A stretch of DNA of 64,000 nt, taken from positions 22,721 through 86,720 of the IMG/VR virus record IMGVR_UViG_3300035034_001226; one strand, given 5' to 3'. Made by a program: the position numbers and the translations under genes. How positions within the stretch are numbered: position 1 is the first letter of the stretch; each line of letters opens with the position of its first letter. The notes beneath the pieces were generated by a model that saw only the letters and a program-made list of their open reading frames with translations, had not been told where the DNA came from and did no database searches. Positions 6,748-46,227 of this stretch are shown here, in pieces. This DNA comes from a virus.

Positions 6748-8223
6748 TTATTCATTCCCTGTAATGTCACTCATTACACTCATTAATTCATCAACACTTT
6801 TCTCATCAACTTCATTATTCTCAAGCATACTGTTTAACTCTTGAGTGGTTTCAGTGTCATCAAAAAGACTCTCAGTAAACAAATTTTCATCTGTTTCTTT
6901 TTTTGTATCATCAAGTCCAGTTAAACCTTCAACTTCACTTAGGTCAGGATCAAATGATATCTTCCGTTTACTAGGCATAACACTAGTTTGACCACCACCA
7001 TGTGGATCGGATATTCTTAAATTATTGGGGTTAAATGCTAGTTCTGAAGTATGCCCTACTCCCTTACTCGATCTGGTTTTTAAGAATGATGCGTTCATGA
7101 CGCCCTCCATTCTCATTATTTTATCCATGTATAATGATATATAATTATCAACCGTGTTAACTTTAGAAATACCACCAGCAATAACACCCTGATCAGGATT
7201 TGCCATTCTCAATGCATCACGATTTTGTTGAGATGCAGAAACACCCATTGCATCATAGTTATGAAAAATCTCCACAACTTCTTCAGATTTACGTTTATCT
7301 TGATCAAATATACTATAATTCTTAACACCACCCATAGGGTCCATAAGGTCAAGATAATCCAAACATATAATATCAGGAACACGCTCGTATTCCATTTCAT
7401 AGTCGGCTAAATATGAATTTATGTCTGCGGCTGTTGAGTGTTGTGGTAATCGTATAAGTTGGTATGACCCACCACTAATATTATAATATTCATCTGTTAT
7501 TTTCTTTGCAATTTCATGAATATTATATCTCCACTTTGATGCGTCAAACCCTGATATGATAGATGCTAGACGTAAAAACACCATTTCAGGTACAAGTTCT
7601 AATGAAATGTATAGTACATGATAACCCTGTAATGCAATATTACGACCAATATTAGCCAACATCAGTGATTTACCACCACCAGAATTAGCAGAAAATAATG
7701 TAAATTGTTTTCTTACTAATCCACCATCTAATGGTATGTCTATGCCTGCTATCCCCGTTGGAATAGGTCTAAATGTTTCCACAAGAGCGTTTAATCGTTC
7801 TTCTGGTGCATCATATACGTTTAGACCTAAATCCTTTCTAAGAGCCACACGTGTAGCTTCTGTAACACGTTCTAACACTGCACTCATGTTATCATCTTCA
7901 ATATCCTGAAGTGAGTCATTGATTGCGAGTTTAACTGCCGATTCTCGACAAAACTTCTCAACCATATCTGATGTAGAATCCACACGATCACGAGTTATTT
8001 TAGAAGTTACCTCAAAATCAATATCAAATTCTACATTCAATTGATCAATCTGTGGAATTGCATTATACTTAATATAATAGTTATGAATAAATTCCACAAC
8101 GGGTTGATACATTTCAGAAAAATAGTCTGGTTTTAAAATACTAGCAGTATTTGTGTAAATTGCTGGTGACGAAACAATATCTTGGATCATCAAACGTTGT
8201 TTTTTCTTATTAGATGTTGACAT
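6748..8223 (-). CDS. DnaB-like replicative helicase (T4 gp41-like)
   Basis: Walker A SANSGGGKS, ISLEL, CLDYLDLM, SASQQNR, KTRS motifs. Confidence 0.92.
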   Translation of the reverse strand: MSTSNKKKQRLMIQDIVSSPAIYTNTASILKPDYFSEMYQPVVEFIHNYYIKYNAIPQIDQLNVEFDIDFEVTSKITRDRVDSTSDMVEKFCRESAVKLAINDSLQDIEDDNMSAVLERVTEATRVALRKDLGLNVYDAPEERLNALVETFRPIPTGIAGIDIPLDGGLVRKQFTLFSANSGGGKSLMLANIGRNIALQGYHVLYISLELVPEMVFLRLASIISGFDASKWRYNIHEIAKKITDEYYNISGGSYQLIRLPQHSTAADINSYLADYEMEYERVPDIICLDYLDLMDPMGGVKNYSIFDQDKRKSEEVVEIFHNYDAMGVSASQQNRDALRMANPDQGVIAGGISKVNTVDNYISLYMDKIMRMEGVMNASFLKTRSSKGVGHTSELAFNPNNLRISDPHGGGQTSVMPSKRKISFDPDLSEVEGLTGLDDTKKETDENLFTESLFDDTETTQELNSMLENNEVDEKSVDELMSVMSDITGNE

Positions 8224-8360
8224 TCAATTCCTCTTAATTGACACATTATACCACACTTTGGTCACCTGTAAATGATAATGACCATACATGACATACCATG
8301 AATAGTTTGAATTACTCATGGATCAGACATTATATCATAAACTTTTTAGTGAATCAATTA

Positions 8361-10049
8361 TTAGTTATCGTTGTTATAAAAGGCATCCTTATCAGTAGGT
8401 GATGTCACCGTTGACTGATTAGGGTCTAATTTTTCATTTACCCGAGGTTTTGCGTTCTTTATAGCCGCTCGTCTATCTGTCTCCAGATATATCCAACGGG
8501 TCTTTGCAGATGAAAATCTATGAAGCCTTGCTGGTATTCCAGAACGTATAGATGTATATGTCAGTCTGTGATAATCACCATCAGATGGCTTTGCTGGGAA
8601 TTCATCACCTTCAGTATAAGATTCACCATTTGGTGGCATTGCATCAATTCCAAACTGGGCACGTTGACGATCTATCTTTCTTGCAACATCAACACTTCCA
8701 TTTTCACTTGCAAATTCATAGAATGATTCTGGTACATCACCTAGATCAGCATAATCAATACCACGTTCTGGTACATTGGTATTATGTTCAGCTTGTATAC
8801 TTTGGGTTATATCAGACAAGTCTTGATATTTCTTATCGTTATTACCATCATTAATATCAGATACACCGTTTTCATCTATATCTGGTGTTAGTTTACCTGC
8901 AATATCTTGTGTTTCCTGTGATGCCATCATAGGACGGCATATTAATCTCTGCATAGTTGGTATCCAGTTAGGTGTGTAACTGTTAATACTCCATGCAACG
9001 TCGGTAACTTCAACAAATCGCAATACAGCTTTCAAACTTGCACTAAATTGTGTCTCTGCTGGAAGCTGTAAAATATCACCAATAACGAATGGTCTACCCA
9101 ATGAGCCAACTGTTGATGAAAAACTTACTTCTATTATCCATGCATCACTACTTACAAGTCCATTAAATCCCCACTTACTTTGGTTTGCCTGAACATCAAT
9201 AGGTTGATATGAAGCTTTCATTCTAACAGGATTCACATCATAATGTCTATCCCTATTTTCCATAAAGATTTTATCTTGAATATTACTTACCTTAGTAGAT
9301 TCAAAATCAAGCAATTGTAATGCTTGTATTTCCCATGCGTCATCTATACCACCGTTGAATATAACTGGACGCAAACGCCAGTATCTAGAGGGTACACTTC
9401 TCTTGAAGTTTATTTGCACTGTACCATCACAATCAGGAAGATCAACTACCTGAACACCATACCATTTAACACCGTCACTAGAACGCTCTATTCTCGCCCG
9501 TGTGACACGATTTTCAGACCTACAACCTTGACGTATTTTCATTGATGCTACATCCGCCTTAACAAATGTTTCAACACCATATCTACGTCTACCATTATCT
9601 AATAATATTTCACCAAAATCATAACCAATGTATGCCGTATTAATTGCTGAACCGACTTGCAGTGATCGCCATTGTGTTTTTAATAAATCAAATGCATTTG
9701 CTGTTGGGAAATTAGGGTGGTCCCCATTTGATATAGGTGCACCATTACCAGTTAAGTCTTGCAGTTTACCTTGTTCGTGAACACCCAATAACTTGTGCAC
9801 ATTGATTATAGCTCCACCAATTGTTATAACTTCACTCACATAGGAATCAAATAAGCAAGAGTCATCAACAGCATCAGTTAGTTCCCATGCTGGATTAGAC
9901 TGCTCATTCTTACAATGTAATGCTGGATTTAGCGTGTTACATAATTTTGAAACTACGTCATCATCAGGTGGTGGTAAATAATTACCATCACCGTCAACTG
10001 GACAGTTTCCACTATCAAGTAGTGATTCTAGTTGTGATGTTATACTCAT
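8361..10049 (-). CDS. Neck/head-completion protein gp14-like with inserted discoidin (F5/8C)-like domain
   Basis: IQDKIFMENRDRHYD gp14-type motif; internal YIGYDFG...VTRARIERSSDGVKW...SRYWRL...W segment. Confidence 0.65.
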   Translation of the reverse strand: MSITSQLESLLDSGNCPVDGDGNYLPPPDDDVVSKLCNTLNPALHCKNEQSNPAWELTDAVDDSCLFDSYVSEVITIGGAIINVHKLLGVHEQGKLQDLTGNGAPISNGDHPNFPTANAFDLLKTQWRSLQVGSAINTAYIGYDFGEILLDNGRRRYGVETFVKADVASMKIRQGCRSENRVTRARIERSSDGVKWYGVQVVDLPDCDGTVQINFKRSVPSRYWRLRPVIFNGGIDDAWEIQALQLLDFESTKVSNIQDKIFMENRDRHYDVNPVRMKASYQPIDVQANQSKWGFNGLVSSDAWIIEVSFSSTVGSLGRPFVIGDILQLPAETQFSASLKAVLRFVEVTDVAWSINSYTPNWIPTMQRLICRPMMASQETQDIAGKLTPDIDENGVSDINDGNNDKKYQDLSDITQSIQAEHNTNVPERGIDYADLGDVPESFYEFASENGSVDVARKIDRQRAQFGIDAMPPNGESYTEGDEFPAKPSDGDYHRLTYTSIRSGIPARLHRFSSAKTRWIYLETDRRAAIKNAKPRVNEKLDPNQSTVTSPTDKDAFYNNDN

Positions 10050-20956: not shown

Positions 20957-22087
20957 TTATTGGTACTCTGTTGCCTTAGAGCTTTTACGTAGAAGATAAT
21001 CCTCACTGACACTCTTCAACAATACTCTGCCAATAGTGTCATCTCTGCGCTCTTTCAATGGTCGTACAACAAGACCCTCTCTGATGTTTACTTCTTTACC
21101 AGAGACAGTTTCACGGCCATCTGTGTGATCCCGTAATGCACCCTCTGAGAATGGTCCACGATAAAGTTCGGGAACAATTCCAATATGGGCACCATCAAAT
21201 ACGTTATTCATATATCCAATTTGACCTATCATATCATCATATCCCATATAATCACCCTGAAAATTATCATGTGACATATAGATATCAAAAACTCGGAATC
21301 CCTTTTTATTACTAGAATCATATTTCAGGTCTTGAACACCATAAATCTCACCTAATATATAAACATTAGGTATACCACATAATAGCCGTAAGGTCTGAAG
21401 ATACTTACCAATACCCAATTCATAGAACGTCTTAACATAAACATTATCTTTATTTACATCACCCATCTGGAATGCAAATCCCTTTCCACTGTGACCTTTA
21501 CTGGTAACAATATAGTCATGACCTACCATTCCAAAGCAAGCCCAAGTACCATGAATTTTTTCGGTAAATACAACATCTTCACCGTCTTTAATTACATTAG
21601 GATGTGACTTGATATTCTCAATATCATATTTCAAGGTGGAACCAAATGGTGGAGTCCATAGAGCACCATTCATACTGGTTGGAATTTCAGGTACATACTT
21701 TTCAATACCTAGAAACTCGGCAACATCATCACCGCAAAATACTTCTTTTAGTTGATCATTCTCACCTTCCAATAATCCATCATCATTCAATGGTAAAATT
21801 AGCCCCTGTGATAGATTACCACGCAATTTAATTGCTTTAATTCTATTACCACGGGAACCGTTAAGCTTGCCCTTATCAGAATCTTCATCCCAAAATCCAA
21901 GTTTCACCCCCAGCCATTTAGGAATAAGGGATGCTTCAGGTATATATACTACCATATCACCTGATGTATAACTGCCCCGTGAGGCAATTGCATTGTATCC
22001 ATCAATTCGAACCATTTCCAAATTATCAGAGTTCTCTGCTGGAAATACATCTAATACTTTTTTTACTAAAACTTTAAAATCACTCAT
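20957..22087 (-). CDS. RNA ligase, Rnl2/DRB0094 type with N-terminal OB-like domain
   Basis: TEKIHGT adenylation motif, GEIYG, FDI, REGLVVR, LKSVSEDYL. Confidence 0.88.
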   Translation of the reverse strand: MSDFKVLVKKVLDVFPAENSDNLEMVRIDGYNAIASRGSYTSGDMVVYIPEASLIPKWLGVKLGFWDEDSDKGKLNGSRGNRIKAIKLRGNLSQGLILPLNDDGLLEGENDQLKEVFCGDDVAEFLGIEKYVPEIPTSMNGALWTPPFGSTLKYDIENIKSHPNVIKDGEDVVFTEKIHGTWACFGMVGHDYIVTSKGHSGKGFAFQMGDVNKDNVYVKTFYELGIGKYLQTLRLLCGIPNVYILGEIYGVQDLKYDSSNKKGFRVFDIYMSHDNFQGDYMGYDDMIGQIGYMNNVFDGAHIGIVPELYRGPFSEGALRDHTDGRETVSGKEVNIREGLVVRPLKERRDDTIGRVLLKSVSEDYLLRKSSKATEYQ

Positions 22088-31115: not shown

Positions 31116-32189
31116 TTATAATGATTTACTCATTATGTCTATTCTAATTTCATCCAACCTACGGCCAATACCAGCACCTACTAGTTGATTCTTTTCCTTT
31201 TCTGATAGATACTCAAAGTTAACTTTAGATGATTCATTAATAGCATTCAGTATTGCATCAGTGTCCTCCAATCGGAGCATCCAAAGTTGAGAAACTTTAA
31301 GATATGTTTCCAACAAACTAGTATCCTGCCAAAGTCTGTATACCTTACACAAATTAAACAATTCAATAGGGTCACTAAAGTCTATTCTATTTGCAGTAAC
31401 ACCGAAACTTATAGCTTCACTAATTTCAGTTGGTATAGATTGCTTCTCAATAAAGTTATCAGCTATATCTCTTCCAACATCCATAAATGTTCCCATCCAT
31501 CTTTCAATTTCAGTTGCGTTTGATACATTGAAAAGCATCATTCGCTGGGTTAGGTCACTGAATGCGATTGATGCAAGGTCAAATATGTCATGCATTGCAT
31601 CAACATCTTTCAGAATTCTGAAAAAGTTCTGGGGATTTGGTTCCATCATTGCGCGTGAAACTTCCTTCCACACCCTTTCACTAATAAGGTGCTTCACTTC
31701 ACCAAAATCAACCATCGCTTTCATCATATCCATAGTTGAAGGGTCAACAGTAAACCCATACCGTGCTGAAAATCTAGCAACCCTAAGAATCCTAACCGGA
31801 TCGTCGGAAAATGCACTAGATACATGACGAAGTATACCATTTTTAATATCATCACGTCCACCGAAAAAATCAAAGATTTCACCAGTTTCCAAATCCTGTG
31901 CAATGGCATTAATAGTCAAATCTCTACGCTTAAGATCATCTTCAAGTGTTACGTATGGTGTGTGATTGGTAGTGAAGCCAGTATATCCATTACCAGATTT
32001 ACGCTCCGTTCGTGCGAGTGCATACTCTTCACCATCTTTCAAAAACACTGGGAATGTTTGACTTACTTGATGGTAGCCAAGAGAGTACATTTCTTCTGGT
32101 GTCGAGCCAACTACGACATAATCAATATCTTGGGGTTCTATACCCATGATTTCATCTCGTACTGCTCCACCAACTTTATAAATTTTCAT
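31116..32189 (-). CDS. cca: tRNA nucleotidyltransferase (CCA-adding enzyme)
   Basis: VGGAVRD, DIDYV, EDDLKRRDLTINA, FSDDPVRILRVARF; start moved to MKIYK. Confidence 0.92.
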   Translation of the reverse strand: MKIYKVGGAVRDEIMGIEPQDIDYVVVGSTPEEMYSLGYHQVSQTFPVFLKDGEEYALARTERKSGNGYTGFTTNHTPYVTLEDDLKRRDLTINAIAQDLETGEIFDFFGGRDDIKNGILRHVSSAFSDDPVRILRVARFSARYGFTVDPSTMDMMKAMVDFGEVKHLISERVWKEVSRAMMEPNPQNFFRILKDVDAMHDIFDLASIAFSDLTQRMMLFNVSNATEIERWMGTFMDVGRDIADNFIEKQSIPTEISEAISFGVTANRIDFSDPIELFNLCKVYRLWQDTSLLETYLKVSQLWMLRLEDTDAILNAINESSKVNFEYLSEKEKNQLVGAGIGRRLDEIRIDIMSKSL

Positions 32190-32364
32190 ATCTATCACCT
32201 TGATTAAACTATTAATACATTTAAGCATGTATTATTGTTGATGTCAAGGTTTATTTTAACCTATTAATATTTAGTAGCCTTGCCTTTAATCGCAAATGTT
32301 ACACAAGTCCTCCGAATCGAACGGTACGGAGGACATCCTAGCCCACCCGCTGCACCAGCAAACG

Positions 32365-33287: not shown

Positions 33288-33974
33288 TTAATTACCTTTC
33301 ATGTAAATATTATTTTCATCACATAATGTGGTCAATTCGTTGTATATCTTATAATCATACTTATTAAGTGTGATTAAAAAATCAATGACCCAATTTGGAA
33401 CATTATTTCTGAAAGTTTCATCACCGGGAATTTCATGTCCTATTGGATATAAGTTCTCTCCAACACCTATCATAATACCGAATATTATCAAATCTTTTGC
33501 ATACGTTTCTTTATTAAAAATAAGTATTGGCATATTTCGCAATCTATCAAATGCAAGGTCTATCTTATCTTCGTACAATACTTCCAACTTCCCGGCTATG
33601 GATTTTGTATATGCGTTGCTAAAATGTGATTTATCGTTTACTAACTTTTCCACAATATCCACCCAGAATTGTGGTTTAGTTAATTGATCTATCTTATGTC
33701 CACCTTCTGGCCGTGTACGTAGTTCCAATAAACTTAATGCCCGTTCCACTGGATCACGCAGAATGGTAAAAAACTCATGTTTATCTTCAAGTTCATCTAA
33801 GTATATACCGGGTTCAACTTCTATTATTTTTATGCGTTCATTTCTAATAGGTTCAAATTCATTAATTCTTTCAATAATATCATTTTTACGATATGGTAAT
33901 CCGTGGGCATGGTATGCTCTACGTAATGTCGAACCCCCACAACGTTGATGATGTAAAAAAATCTTAGCCGTCAT
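33288..33974 (-). CDS. Sulfotransferase family 2-like protein
   Basis: IFLHHQRCGGST, FFTILRDPVERALS, NKYDYKIY. Confidence 0.75.
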   Translation of the reverse strand: MTAKIFLHHQRCGGSTLRRAYHAHGLPYRKNDIIERINEFEPIRNERIKIIEVEPGIYLDELEDKHEFFTILRDPVERALSLLELRTRPEGGHKIDQLTKPQFWVDIVEKLVNDKSHFSNAYTKSIAGKLEVLYEDKIDLAFDRLRNMPILIFNKETYAKDLIIFGIMIGVGENLYPIGHEIPGDETFRNNVPNWVIDFLITLNKYDYKIYNELTTLCDENNIYMKGN

Positions 33975-34450
33975 TATGTATATAACCTACTCATAAGTTC
34001 TTCATTTTTAATTGTTGTTCTTAATTTCATTAACCTACTACAAAATTCTGTTCTGGTTAATATTGTTTCAGACTTATTTGTCCTTCCAATACTGTGTGTC
34101 AATTTTGAATTATTAGATGCCATTAGAGCTTTACGTGCTTTCGAATTTTCAGTGTATAGTACAGTGAATGCTTCATCCAAAAGTTCTTGATATTCATCTG
34201 ACTTTCTTTGGTATGCTACACCATCCCACCATAATACTTGATCACGTTGCCAATTTTTATTAGCACCTGACTTCTTTGCTGCAAACCCAACCAAAGTGCA
34301 AATATGTTTTTGCATCTCAACATCTTTAAATTTTAACGACTGTAAAAACCCTTCCATAGATGCTACCTCCACACCCCTAAATGTAAACGGGTGTGGAGCA
34401 AAATTACTTAATGCACCTGCTGGGTATTTTGTCCCTGATTTTATATCCAT
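33974..34450 (-). CDS. T4 gp30.3-like NADAR-superfamily protein
   Basis: LSNFAPHPF...SMEGFLQSLKF...GFAAK...TILTRTEFC. Confidence 0.85.
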   Translation of the reverse strand: MDIKSGTKYPAGALSNFAPHPFTFRGVEVASMEGFLQSLKFKDVEMQKHICTLVGFAAKKSGANKNWQRDQVLWWDGVAYQRKSDEYQELLDEAFTVLYTENSKARKALMASNNSKLTHSIGRTNKSETILTRTEFCSRLMKLRTTIKNEELMSRLYT

Positions 34451-41805: not shown

Positions 41806-41830
41806 ATTTTACCCCATAAATTATATTGTT

Positions 41831-41906
41831 TGGTATCCCTACACGGACTTGAACCGAGATTTTAACCTTGAAAGGGTTACGTCCTAACCAATTAGACGAT
41901 AGGGAC
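41831..41906 (-). tRNA. tRNA-Glu (UUC)
   Basis: TAACC-CTTTCAA-GGTTA. Confidence 0.9.
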
Positions 41907-41939
41907 ATTGAATGTTTATTTATTACTAGGAGGGTTAAT

Positions 41940-42790
41940 AATAAACGCTGAGATTATACGTTTTAGTAGTGACCTTTAATTCCCGTACCATATCCCTTGC
42001 GAGGATAGTTAAGAACTTATCCATATAAACGCTATTAAGCTGCCTATATATTCACTAATGCTGCCTTGTTAAAGTGTGGCGTTTCACTTGTCATAACATA
42101 CTACTCGTCCAGTCTTATTACGTCTGGTCACCCAGTTAAACTCCGCTAAAAGTCTACGTACTCTTTCTAAACAAATATCATCAGCTTGCGGCCTTTGACA
42201 CACTCCATTCCAAATGGTGGAGTATTAAGCATTTTTAGTATGCTACCGGAATGGTCTTTGCGTTTTAATCAATAGTAGGACTTGAACCTACATACGATTC
42301 CTTTTGAGGGAATTGCCTAATCCAATTTGGCTATATTGTAACCTACTAAGATGTGCCATTCCTGTCGCTACATATCTTGTTAGATACGTAATACAACACA
42401 CCTCCTATCTTTCGTCTTGCGAACTACTCGATATCCTTTCACGATTATGGCTCTTACACCAATATCGTTCAAAATGATAGCTGCCCTTTCCTGCGAAAGA
42501 TCGGACTAATCCATCTACACATTAGAATCCCACTATGGTTAGGTTGATTTGTTCAGCTTGGCTATCACACCAATTCATGTCTCGCGGAGCCGTCTGACAC
42601 TATCCTTTCGGACTAAAACCCTAACTTACAGTTTATCGCTGCCTTAACAACGCGGCTAACTTAGAACCGAAGTTCATATTGCCTATCCTGTGCTTGCATA
42701 TATAGACCCTTACGGGTGATGGCGTGTAGGACGCTCATCTTTTTAAGTGTTACCACTTATTGTCTTATTGAGGATATGCCCCCAAATTCT
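41940..42790 (-). ncRNA. Large ornate RNA, GOLLD-like, with embedded tRNA-like domain
   Basis: ~850 nt without ORF between tRNA genes; many GNRA/UUCG hairpins; promoter at 42835-42862. Confidence 0.65.
42267..42341 (-). tRNA. tRNA-like domain (CAA anticodon) inside the large RNA
   Basis: ATTCC-CTCAAAA-GGAAT arm, GTAGG-TTCAAGT-CCTAC; 5-bp acceptor, no CCA. Confidence 0.6.
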
Positions 42791-42834
42791 CATGTTACAT
42801 AAATGTTATTATTTATGTCTTAAAACTTGCGATT

Positions 42835-42862
42835 ATTATATCATAAAATGTTTTATTGTCAA
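42835..42862 (-). promoter_or_regulatory. sigma70-like promoter
   Basis: TTGACA-16-TATAAT. Confidence 0.7.
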
Positions 42863-42888
42863 CTATTTTTTTTTGAAATAATTTTACT

Positions 42889-42965
42889 TGGTGGACGTGG
42901 TAGGATTTGAACCTACGGATACCTCCTTATCAGAGAGGCTGCTTAGACCACTTGCATACACGTCC
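42889..42965 (-). tRNA. tRNA-Ile (GAU)
   Basis: CCTCT-CTGATAA-GGAGG. Confidence 0.9.
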
Positions 42966-42977
42966 ATAATTTATTAA

Positions 42978-43047
42978 CCTATATTGCAAGATTCGAACTT
43001 GCGTCTGTGGGTTCGTCCACTGTTCTATCCACTGAACTATTTATAGG
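42978..43047 (-). pseudogene. tRNA-Arg(ACG)-like pseudo-tRNA with shortened anticodon loop
   Basis: D and T arms intact; GTGG-ACGAAC-CCAC; no CCA. Confidence 0.6.
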
Positions 43048-43049
43048 GT

Positions 43050-43184
43050 TGGGTATGGTCACTACTCCATAATCTTCCAGATGTTACTCCGGTGCTTTCT
43101 CAATCAATGTATTAGTGATATAACTATTTCGAAGTTCATTATACCACCTCAATCAATCTACATAGTGAATCTTTAAGCTACCTC
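43050..43184 (-). ncRNA. Unknown RNA motif, copy 1
   Basis: Three sequence blocks shared with 58891-59059. Confidence 0.6.
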
Positions 43185-43187
43185 AAA

Positions 43188-44961: not shown

Positions 44962-46227
44962 TTAATTACTCAATTCAATTAAATGTGAAATTGTGCACTG
45001 CTTACCATCATACACGATGTACTCATTATTACGTAGATCAGCACCACCTTCAGCAAACACACTATCATACCCCTCACGTTTCAAAACGCTCTTAGAGAGA
45101 GAATAACAGTCACGTGTGTGATGTTTAATACGCTTCCACTTACCAGTATGGACTTTAAATAATGCTAGGTATGCAGTATTGTCACTTCCACTCGCCCAAT
45201 ATGATCCACGTAGGGAAGTATATCCAATAGACTTCTGTGCCTTATCAGCAAAGTAGATACCATCACCAAACATAGAGCCAGTATATAAAGCACCCGCTGG
45301 ACGAATCATCAAACCAGTAGAAATAATATTCAACCAGTTTTGATTTCTTGAACCGTGAAAGAAATGTCTTACATGCTTATCATCAACCGATTTCAAATGG
45401 TTATCGAACTTCTTCTCAGTTGCCAAATGCTTTACAGTGAAAACTCTTTTGACTTGACCCTTGTTGCTACCCATCTTACTCACTGCAAAGTCATATTCTT
45501 CAGTTGATGCTGCTTCTATTTCTACACCCAACATTGTTAGAATGTCTTTATGATCAGATTTCACAGTATCATCGGTTTCATCATTAATCAAAACCTGTCC
45601 AGCCATTACATCTAATGTAGCCTGCTCTTCTGCAATTTGACTTTTAATATCATCTAATAATGCCTTATTAATTTTAGCATCCTTTTCAAATATATGATCC
45701 CTAACATCTTTCATTCGGCGTGGAATGATATGATATAGTTCAATCAATTGCTTATTAATATCATCAGTTTTCCTTCTAAGTTTTGCGGCATCTAAGATAC
45801 TATTAACCTTATCTTGGGCCTCATCAATCTGTGCTTGTGTAACTGATTTAGAACTTACTGAATAATTTTCCTGAATAGAGTTATTAGCAAAACGTTGTAA
45901 TATATCCATCAAGGATTTAACTTTACTGTCTTTAATATCTACAATGTTTGATGGTGTACTACTATCAGACTCTGCAAATAAATGGGTAACTTCAGTGTAA
46001 ATACTACCACTTTTACTCTTCTTAGACTTTATAACGGAATCCCATTTTGACATCGGATATTCTTTAATCTGTGGGGCACAATCTACTCTACCATATTCTG
46101 CAATGAATGTTGAATCATCCTGCTCATACATATTGTAGTATTTGTTGCTCTGTGCAGTTTTACCATCATCAATGGAAACACAAATTAACTTACATACTTT
46201 TTTGCCTTCTACTAATAACTCACTCAT
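44962..46227 (-). CDS. PARP-like ADP-ribosyltransferase: WGR, regulatory and catalytic domains
   Basis: NKYY...EYGRV (WGR); LYHIIPR (regulatory); FHGS, GSMFGDGIYFA, KSIGY, NNEYIVY (H-Y-E triad). Confidence 0.9.
   Translation of the reverse strand: MSELLVEGKKVCKLICVSIDDGKTAQSNKYYNMYEQDDSTFIAEYGRVDCAPQIKEYPMSKWDSVIKSKKSKSGSIYTEVTHLFAESDSSTPSNIVDIKDSKVKSLMDILQRFANNSIQENYSVSSKSVTQAQIDEAQDKVNSILDAAKLRRKTDDINKQLIELYHIIPRRMKDVRDHIFEKDAKINKALLDDIKSQIAEEQATLDVMAGQVLINDETDDTVKSDHKDILTMLGVEIEAASTEEYDFAVSKMGSNKGQVKRVFTVKHLATEKKFDNHLKSVDDKHVRHFFHGSRNQNWLNIISTGLMIRPAGALYTGSMFGDGIYFADKAQKSIGYTSLRGSYWASGSDNTAYLALFKVHTGKWKRIKHHTRDCYSLSKSVLKREGYDSVFAEGGADLRNNEYIVYDGKQCTISHLIELSN

Follow-up and report, generated by a model that had tools for sequence, protein, structure and literature searches.

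The DNA analyzed here is a 64,000-nt window of the IMG/VR virus record IMGVR_UViG_3300035034_001226, and all coordinates below refer to this whole window. The record is 105 kb long and its completeness is estimated at about 30%, which points to a jumbo phage as its origin. Its proteins include a T4-type Gp23 capsid protein, a DnaB-like helicase, an RNA ligase, a DNA ligase and a PARP-like protein, and ARAGORN identifies 38 tRNA genes in the window, every one of them on the minus strand. A sequencing-run search found the window sequence in lake and salt-lake DNA metagenome runs only, and in no RNA run. The host element is a fragment of an uncultivated, T4-like jumbo phage of lake origin. The locus under study, which is read on the minus strand, consists of a GOLLD RNA gene and its immediate neighbors; these features, together with one enzyme gene encoded elsewhere in the window, are as follows.

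42889-42965, minus strand: tRNA-Ile(GAU) gene, directly upstream of the GOLLD promoter.
42835-42862, minus strand: putative sigma70-type promoter, with TTGACA at 42862-42857, a 16-nt spacer containing TG, and TATAAT at 42840-42835.
42405-42828, minus strand: GOLLD 5' domain, with conserved blocks in 68 relatives, outside the Rfam model.
42348-42404, minus strand: long hairpin closing the 5' part, aligned by cmscan to positions 1-62 of the RF02032 model.
42341-42347, minus strand: junction (A)GUAGG-U, directly 5' of the tRNA-like module.
42267-42340, minus strand: tRNA-like module, called tRNA-Leu(CAA) by ARAGORN and scoring 49.2 bits against the Rfam tRNA model.
41945-42266, minus strand: GOLLD 3' domain, matched by RF02032 and ending in UAAUCUCAGCGU.
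41831-41906, minus strand: tRNA-Glu(UUC) gene, 38 nt downstream of GOLLD.
31116-32228: nucleotidyltransferase of the CCA-adding / poly(A) polymerase family.

An earlier note, made from the sequence alone, had described this region as the longest ORF-free stretch, with its own sigma70 promoter and with flanking tRNA genes, and each of these observations holds. The longest part of the window without an ORF of at least 60 aa spans 41806-43187 (1382 nt), and no ORF longer than 57 aa was found on either strand within 41940-42830. The flanking genes are those for tRNA-Ile(GAU) and tRNA-Glu(UUC). The promoter matches the consensus at 12 of 12 positions and has an extended -10 TG in addition. It places the predicted transcription start near 42828, i.e., about 40 nt beyond the upper boundary of 42790 that had been proposed earlier; the conserved GOLLD sequence itself starts near 42790. 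Promoter-like sites that match at 10 or more of the 12 positions, no more than 110 nt upstream of the conserved 5' block, were also found in 24 of 68 relatives among the matches listed, many of them approximately 30-50 nt from that block.

From its predicted start, the GOLLD RNA would be about 884 nt long (42828-41945). No terminator was found between GOLLD and the tRNA-Glu gene. The tRNA is probably co-transcribed with GOLLD, and the GOLLD 3' end is probably set in part by RNase P cleavage at the tRNA-Glu 5' end; at other GOLLD loci, too, a tRNA often begins 11-50 nt past the GOLLD 3' end. Because the sequence is known from DNA metagenomes only, we infer the ends of the transcript, its lack of processing and its assembly.

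The GOLLD RNA family was reportedly described by Weinberg et al. in 2009. Genes for GOLLD RNAs are found in phages and prophages, close to tRNA islands, and the RNAs form RNA-only cages of 12 or 14 subunits (PMC12286853, PMC12990946). Two have been solved, namely env-38, a 14-mer (PDB 9MEE; Kretsch et al. 2025, PMC12286853), and the 12-mer from Streptococcus agalactiae (9L0R, as reviewed in PMC12990946). In these structures the linker is unresolved and points into the interior of the cage (PMC12286853 and its preprint, PMC12990946).

The earlier note had named GOLLD as its first option, and had proposed a search with the Rfam GOLLD and ROOL models. When this search was run, the ROOL model had no match in the window, and the GOLLD model RF02032 aligned from end to end (model positions 1-416 of 416) at 42404-41945 on the minus strand, with E = 8.1e-42 and 156.1 bits against a gathering score of 150, i.e., only 6 bits over the cut-off. 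Repeating the search on the whole 105-kb record showed this to be its only GOLLD copy. The RF02032 model extends from the final hairpin of the 5' part, across the linker, through the conserved 3' domain, which is the universally conserved half of the family; approximately 420 nt upstream lie outside it. The hairpin at 42348-42404 bears the branch-specific motif TGTGTTGTAT...GCACATC. The 5' part of about 420 nt is conserved among 68 relatives (matches listed), and when it was folded with RNAalifold on 33 relatives among the matches listed, 48 of the 55 predicted pairs were accompanied by compensatory changes. Since the 5' part is conserved and covarying, and is joined to a complete RF02032 match, the whole unit of about 884 nt is a GOLLD RNA. 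That is, the window encodes a GOLLD RNA at 42828-41945 on the minus strand, and the first option of the earlier note is borne out in both halves of the molecule.

The remaining properties of the locus agree with this assignment. It is non-coding, virus-encoded and set in a tRNA array, as expected of GOLLD, and it has the length typical of the family (about 800 nt or more) along with a large structured 5' domain. The minimum free energy of the whole RNA is -236.2 kcal/mol, against -213.5 +/- 5.3 kcal/mol for shuffled sequences (z = -4.27). The region had also been described as packed with tetraloop hairpins. Those quoted are indeed present on the minus strand (ACCC-GTAA-GGGT, GAAC-TTCG-GTTC, a GAAA hairpin and CTC-GCAA-GGG), but strict GNRA and UUCG hairpins number 6, where mononucleotide shuffles have 2.7 +/- 1.6. 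Taken alone, the number of tetraloops is therefore only modestly in excess, and the folding energy and the covariation are the stronger evidence.

Within the family, the GOLLD of the window is a divergent member on a long branch. Its nearest relative, among the matches listed, is 60% identical to it, and its Rfam score of 156 bits compares with 185-204 bits for its relatives. Similar DNA in deposited phage genomes was limited to three weak matches. One of them, at about 33533-34001 of PV764938.1 (Sinorhizobium phage Phosso, a phage of S. meliloti), is a GOLLD that belongs to this branch and has a similar insert; it carries no annotation in the GenBank record. Among cellular genomes, three MAG contigs matched and no others, and these gave no clue to the host; this branch of GOLLD is essentially absent from cellular genomes.

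The tRNA-like module occupies the GOLLD linker, between RF02032 positions 62 and about 134. Both ARAGORN and the Rfam tRNA alignment confirm what the earlier note had seen there, i.e., full D, anticodon and T arms, a frayed acceptor, no CCA, and the anticodon CAA. The Rfam score of 49.2 bits, against a threshold of 29, comes from a local alignment that spans model positions 3-68 only. The D, anticodon and T arms are intact, with G18 and G19 in the D arm and a T arm of the form GUAGG-UUCAAGU-CCUAC. The anticodon stem (42313-42309 paired with 42301-42297) closes the loop CUCAAAA, whose anticodon is at 42306-42304; U33 and A37 are present, and the variable loop, of 5 nt, is of class I. The acceptor stem, by contrast with these intact arms, has 5 base pairs and two terminal mismatches, at 1-72 (U.U) and 2-71 (A.A). 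U73, at 42267, is followed by AAAAC, and not by CCA.

Measured against a tRNA-Leu, then, the module has the core of the cloverleaf, U33 and the elbow formed by G18G19 and the T loop, but it lacks the seven-pair acceptor, A73, an encoded CCA, the class II arm and a conserved anticodon. The comparison with the phage's own tRNAs is direct. CCA is encoded by 36 of the 37 free tRNA genes of the window, and A73 is present in 5 of its 5 free Leu tRNAs, whereas the module has U73; the discriminator A73 is the major identity element for LeuRS. The module is thus defective, relative to the tRNAs of the same phage, at the acceptor end, the discriminator and the CCA; a CCA might still be added post-transcriptionally if the module were excised. 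Little weight can be put on the missing class II arm, because free Leu tRNAs of class I length, with A73 and CCA, occur in the phage as well. In addition, a separate, free tRNA-Leu(CAA) gene is found in the window at 52382-52310. In sequence, the module shares 72-75% identity with its counterparts in other GOLLDs, but no more than 64% with any of the tRNAs encoded by the same genome. That it is closer to other GOLLD inserts than to its own tRNAs indicates that it is inherited, or travels, with GOLLD.

Two scans of viral contigs served to survey the linkers of related GOLLDs. With a pattern from the GOLLD 3' end, the first gave at least 117 loci, a number expected to include chance matches, although motif checks suggest that most are real GOLLDs; at 12 of these loci, ARAGORN finds a tRNA at an offset like that in the window. 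The second used a pattern in the upstream hairpin, and is thus blind to the content of the linker. It gave at least 120 viral contigs, many of them 200-420 kb long. Eight of the second-scan loci, two of them without a cloverleaf, were sampled with Rfam, and all proved to be GOLLDs, at 185-204 bits.

Among the matches listed there are 95 distinct linkers, of which 86 (69-81 nt) align as a single cloverleaf; five long linkers (87-104 nt) contain a cloverleaf plus extras, and four short ones (45-59 nt) have none. GOLLD remains intact in those four, so its core fold does not depend on the module. At the junction, GTAGG is invariant and the TT that follows is nearly invariant in the 86 aligned relatives (matches listed); GTAGG is part of the search pattern, and so only the TT counts as independent evidence. 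Across the 86 modules among the matches listed, 96.5% of cells in the inner acceptor, D, anticodon and T helices form pairs, and double-sided changes number 422. Their covariation score is 0.764, compared with 0.216 for shuffled alignments and 0.07-0.18 for slid controls. The anticodon arm of these listed modules is 99.3% paired and covaries strongly, and both G18G19 and the T-loop sequence GGTTCRA are nearly invariant in the same set. The linker of this branch of GOLLD is a conserved, tRNA-derived domain that has been selected as a structure.

The frayed acceptor and the absence of CCA, which the earlier note had recorded for the window, turn out to be the norm of the branch. Among the 86 listed modules, 67 have an uninterrupted acceptor stem of 4-5 bp, and only eight have seven acceptor pairs, even with G-U pairs included; CCA is missing from all but one, L106, which is followed by ACCA. 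Because of these eight modules and L106, we consider that some members may still yield tRNAs. A comparison of ARAGORN genes at the loci listed makes the same point: positions 2 and 71 fail to pair in 44 of 70 embedded modules (63%) and in 6 of 1045 free tRNAs (0.6%), and all seven acceptor pairs are formed in 11% of the 70 embedded modules and 86% of the 1045 free tRNAs. Among the matches listed, every embedded module with a Ser or Leu anticodon has a length of 71-74 nt, versus 84-94 nt for free tRNA-Ser. Lastly, in two relatives among the matches listed, the cloverleaf is circularly permuted and its acceptor end is capped by a loop; what is kept, therefore, is the body of the tRNA, and not a free acceptor end.

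The part of the module that changes most is the anticodon. Among the matches listed, 79 of the 86 modules have anticodon loops of seven nucleotides, with 20 different anticodons between them; the remaining seven have loops of 6, 8 or 9 nt. The most frequent anticodons in these 79 listed modules are GUU (31), UUU (11), CUU (7) and UCU (5), and the CAA of the window is one of many singletons. Stop anticodons, three different ones, occur in four of the 79 seven-nt loops among the matches listed. Within clusters of near-identical modules, again among the matches listed, the anticodon columns are the fastest in the module, with 5.3 changes per column, compared with 0.4-1.0 changes per column for the stems, the D loop and the variable loop; U33 is unchanged throughout the same clusters. 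The 3' tail of the module, which is the sole neutral yardstick among these listed sequences, has 3.3 changes per column, versus 5.3 for the anticodon.

The history of the anticodon was followed on a tree of 68 GOLLD backbones among the matches listed, from which the module columns had been excluded. On this 68-tip tree, at least 34 changes of anticodon label are required, compared with 41.3 +/- 1.2 (minimum 37) for shuffled labels. The GOLLD of the window falls into a clade of 21 members (68-tip tree, matches listed), nearly every one of which has a different anticodon. In addition, two GOLLDs among the matches listed have backbones that differ at 1 of about 840 columns (99.9% identity) and modules that differ at 30 of 73 positions. 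Near-identical backbones with diverged modules indicate cassette replacement, i.e., that the modules are swappable as cassettes. A partner for the anticodon loop elsewhere in GOLLD, with which it could form a kissing-loop interaction, was also sought, across the well-occupied columns of the 68-sequence full-length alignment (matches listed); the best non-self site was 58% paired, within the range of 58-61% for the maximum of the permuted-loop null, and no segment of GOLLD was seen to covary with the loop. A partner of this kind thus finds no support, with the proviso that an alignment-based scan can miss one.

Taken together, these results lead us to a structural interpretation that we consider very probable: the locus encodes a GOLLD RNA of about 884 nt, with a promoter of its own, which by homology would form cages and in which the linker is a tethered, non-decoding, tRNA-shaped domain. 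The RNA would be transcribed from its own sigma70-type promoter. Its 5' and 3' domains would fold separately, and, judging by homology with the two solved GOLLDs, 12-14 copies would self-assemble into an RNA-only cage, with the linker between the two domains facing the interior. Within this cage, the module would keep the core of the L-shape, i.e., the D and T arms, the G18G19/T-loop elbow and a seven-nt loop with U33. Given that it lacks two acceptor pairs, A73 and an encoded CCA, the module is most likely tethered and non-decoding; it would remain covalently attached, neither excised nor charged, so that each cage might show 12-14 tRNA-shaped domains to some tRNA-binding partner.

As to what that partner might be, we can offer a tentative and, in our judgment, unlikely suggestion, namely that the swappable, fast-evolving module acts as bait: tethered 12-14 times per cage, it would offer the tRNA shape, with its anticodon loop exposed, to a factor that targets tRNAs, most attractively a host anticodon nuclease or another tRNA-directed defence, which the cage would soak up or sequester; an alternative partner would be a tRNA-repair or tRNA-modification enzyme of the phage. 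An arms race over the presented triplet would account for a hypervariable anticodon next to a conserved U33, for the 34 or more switches, and for the exchange of modules in a 99.9%-identical backbone, as well as for the proximity of tRNA arrays, an RNA ligase and a CCA-adding-type enzyme. A decoy, as the earlier note had suggested, would fit the non-decoding features of the module, the hypervariability of its anticodon, the swapping of cassettes and the context of tRNA-repair genes. A loop that merely has to be there, and drifts neutrally, would fit equally or almost equally well, however, because the rate of change in the module's unconstrained 3' tail comes close to that of the anticodon.

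A different role for the tRNA shape would be that of a processing signal, by which RNase P, and possibly RNase Z, splits GOLLD into separate 5'- and 3'-domain RNAs that then assemble non-covalently. The tRNA elbow and the stack of the T arm on the acceptor are the main determinants recognized by RNase P, and they are also the best-conserved parts of the module. In the cage, the 5' domain and the 3' domain form structural units of their own; GOLLD genes lie within tRNA operons that are processed by RNase P anyway; and tRNA-like punctuation is known from other systems, e.g., from mitochondrial transcripts and from the mascRNA of MALAT1. RNase P is able to cut substrates with imperfect acceptor stems, and cleavage at the module is accordingly possible. 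A processing signal would nevertheless be expected to keep pairs 1-72 and 2-71, at the cleavage site, and precisely these are lost. It would not need an anticodon arm with U33, yet this arm covaries strongly and is 99.3% paired; and the permuted modules would be cut in their capping loop and not between the domains. Considering also that full-length GOLLD RNAs assemble uncleaved in vitro (PMC12990946, PMC12286853), we regard this explanation as quite improbable.

It is also very unlikely, in our assessment, that the module is a genuine tRNA, of Leu(CAA) or other identity, for which GOLLD serves as precursor or store, and which is excised by RNase P and a 3' nuclease, completed by the CCA-adding enzyme of the phage and used to decode UUG. 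This possibility does have a basis, in that the cloverleaf core is complete (U33, A37 and the elbow) and scores above the Rfam tRNA threshold, the phage has a gene for a CCA-adding / poly(A) polymerase-type nucleotidyltransferase, free tRNA-Leu genes of class I length exist in the same phage, and an "inhibited storage" of the embedded tRNA has been proposed (PMC12990946). Against it stand the two acceptor mismatches, the U73 and the missing CCA of the module, as compared with the free tRNAs of the window, which already include a tRNA-Leu(CAA). Across the listed homologs, moreover, the acceptor end is systematically degraded and the anticodon is the least conserved part of the module, loops of 6, 8 or 9 nt occur, and modules with Ser anticodons are without the long arm of every free tRNA-Ser in the loci listed. 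In Mycobacterium aubagnense, where a pseudo-tRNA lies inside GOLLD, Northern blots revealed no separate transcript of it (Behra et al. 2019, PMC6582537).

Finally, we give next to no credence to the idea that the module is the decaying, non-functional relic of a captured tRNA gene, tolerated in an unconstrained linker: the acceptor end, CCA and anticodon have decayed, four linkers among the matches listed have lost the cloverleaf with GOLLD intact, and the anticodon and the unconstrained tail change at similar rates (5.3 versus 3.3 changes per column), but a relic would not show 96.5% pairing with 422 compensatory cells over 86 diverged copies among the matches listed, an invariant U33 within clusters and a conserved elbow, nor would it be kept in about nine of ten distinct linkers among the matches listed and, when swapped, be replaced by another intact module.

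The interpretation that we favor, that of a GOLLD RNA with a tethered, tRNA-shaped linker domain, can be set against systems already described. Other RNAs use a tRNA shape within a larger molecule for purposes beyond ordinary decoding, namely the 3' TLS of plant viruses, the mascRNA of MALAT1 and the tRNA-like domain of tmRNA. In these, the acceptor end is functional, and is aminoacylated or cut by RNase P; in the GOLLD module, which is internal, the acceptor end has been lost. ROOL, which forms an octameric cage (PDB 9MDS), is likewise a large RNA encoded close to tRNA islands by phages or prophages, and its internal linker is disordered, but it is unrelated to GOLLD in sequence and fold; in the ROOL/GOLLD cage literature, we found no report of a tRNA in the ROOL linker. 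The closest comparison is with the solved GOLLDs. The GOLLD of the window resembles them in its length of about 880 nt, its conserved 3' domain, variable 5' domain and central linker, its phage tRNA array and its lake origin. All that is said of the env-38 linker is that it is variable and disordered, whereas that of the window is a structured, tRNA-like domain; conversely, a cage has been seen for env-38 and for the S. agalactiae GOLLD, and the member studied here is known from its sequence alone.

It had been cautioned in the earlier note that a full-length GOLLD match would reduce the novelty of the locus to its embedded module, and this is so. In fact, neither the GOLLD class nor the existence of a tRNA-like insert is new, because tRNAs, or a pseudo-tRNA, have already been published in the GOLLD linker: tRNAs are sometimes present there (PMC12286853, PMC12990946), as is the pseudo-tRNA of M. 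aubagnense (PMC6582537), and a mycobacterial GOLLD with an embedded tRNA-Phe is attributed to Morgado et al. 2020, as cited in PMC12990946. The mycobacterial GOLLD shares with ours the tRNA-shaped gene in the linker, in a tRNA cluster that was horizontally acquired; it differs in host range and in branch, ours being that of a lake jumbo phage. What is new is the branch-wide comparison of the insert, over at least 120 related viral contigs. In the part of the GOLLD literature covered, we found no branch-wide account of the truncated acceptor, the hypervariable anticodon, the exchange of cassettes or the permuted forms.

The locus itself is thus an ordinary, somewhat divergent member of GOLLD, a family that is among the largest non-coding RNAs of bacteria and phages, and it is the comparison made from it that provides a handle on function. 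A linker that is selected, non-decoding and tRNA-shaped, and whose anticodon turns over rapidly, narrows the functional hypotheses for GOLLD to partners that bind tRNA. Sinorhizobium phage Phosso, which is cultivated and carries the same kind of insert, offers a direct test system for processing, assembly and fitness. If the module does prove to be bait, this would be the first function for GOLLD.

Comparison of the viral loci that carry the same branch of GOLLD RNA as the window indicates that the tRNA-like module in the central linker is swapped between these RNAs as a cassette. The GOLLD backbones of loci L129 and L211 are 99.9% identical, with one difference in about 840 columns; their modules are only 59% identical, with 30 differences. 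Locus L178, compared with L195/L199, provides a further case of module exchange. The sequences on either side of the module, GCACATC...GTAGG and AAAAGCAAAGAC, are conserved and would be candidate arms for recombination.

Among the matches listed, a few branch members (L183, L167, L217 and L037/L086) have short linkers of 45-59 nt without a cloverleaf, although that of L167 retains an apparent T-arm remnant. The two short-linker loci run against Rfam, L183 and L037, lack the cloverleaf yet score 191-197 bits as GOLLD; therefore, the module can be lost.

Also among the matches listed, two related GOLLDs carry a circularly permuted cloverleaf in linkers of 100-102 nt:

L145:4697-5183 (IMGVR_UViG_3300044512_003283), permuted-module GOLLD, linker part
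L172:7545-8034 (IMGVR_UViG_3300009154_000117), permuted-module GOLLD, linker part

Both loci are GOLLD by Rfam, at 188-199 bits. Their linkers begin with the T arm, followed by the 3' strand of the acceptor, ACCA and a capping loop of 6-8 nt, after which come the 5' strand of the acceptor, the D arm and the anticodon arm. The acceptor stem comprises 7-8 perfect pairs, the anticodons are CUU and GAU, and the permuted layout is recovered in minimum-free-energy folds. Elsewhere, permuted tRNA genes are known chiefly in a few algae and archaea. Contig L145 also contains a permuted tmRNA gene (8196-8535, 150.3 bits); because this gene is of the alphaproteobacterial type, it hints at an alphaproteobacterial host for the phage.

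A GOLLD RNA is also present in a cultivated jumbo phage, the 469-kb Sinorhizobium phage Phosso (PV764938.1, about 33533-34001, i.e., L234:1324-1792; 186.6 bits), where the record carries no annotation for it. Its embedded module, with anticodon UCU, scores 54.1 bits against the Rfam tRNA model; its acceptor stem has only three uninterrupted pairs, CCA is absent, and ARAGORN makes no call there.

Within the window, three free-standing tRNAs with leucine anticodons were found:

47903-47831, minus strand, anticodon UAA, 73 nt before CCA
52382-52310, minus strand, anticodon CAA, 73 nt before CCA
59139-59067, minus strand, anticodon UAG, 73 nt before CCA

At just 73 nt, they have no long variable arm, but each retains A73 and encodes its CCA. 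Ordinary long-arm tRNA-Leu genes (UAG, 82 nt; GAG, 83 nt) adjoin them, and short-type leucine tRNAs of 77 nt recur in related jumbo-phage loci.

Calls in the window by the Rfam tRNA model (cmscan) and by ARAGORN were compared, and differed as follows:

42978-43046, minus strand, Rfam match without ARAGORN call, 39.8 bits
50715-50780, minus strand, Rfam match without ARAGORN call, 39.1 bits
52917-53034, minus strand, Rfam match without ARAGORN call, 34.1 bits, 118 nt
49910-49985, ARAGORN call, none listed by cmscan
53041-53117, ARAGORN call, none listed by cmscan

The 118-nt span of the third match suggests an insert or intron.

Three protein genes on the minus strand of the phage fragment are interspersed with the tRNA genes. 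The gene at 20957-22087 encodes an RNA ligase (RNA_ligase and PHA02142 OB domains), that at 31116-32228 a nucleotidyltransferase of the CCA-adding/poly(A)-polymerase family, and that at 44962-46227 a protein whose catalytic domain is of the PARP type; the ligase and the nucleotidyltransferase look like a kit for tRNA maintenance and repair.
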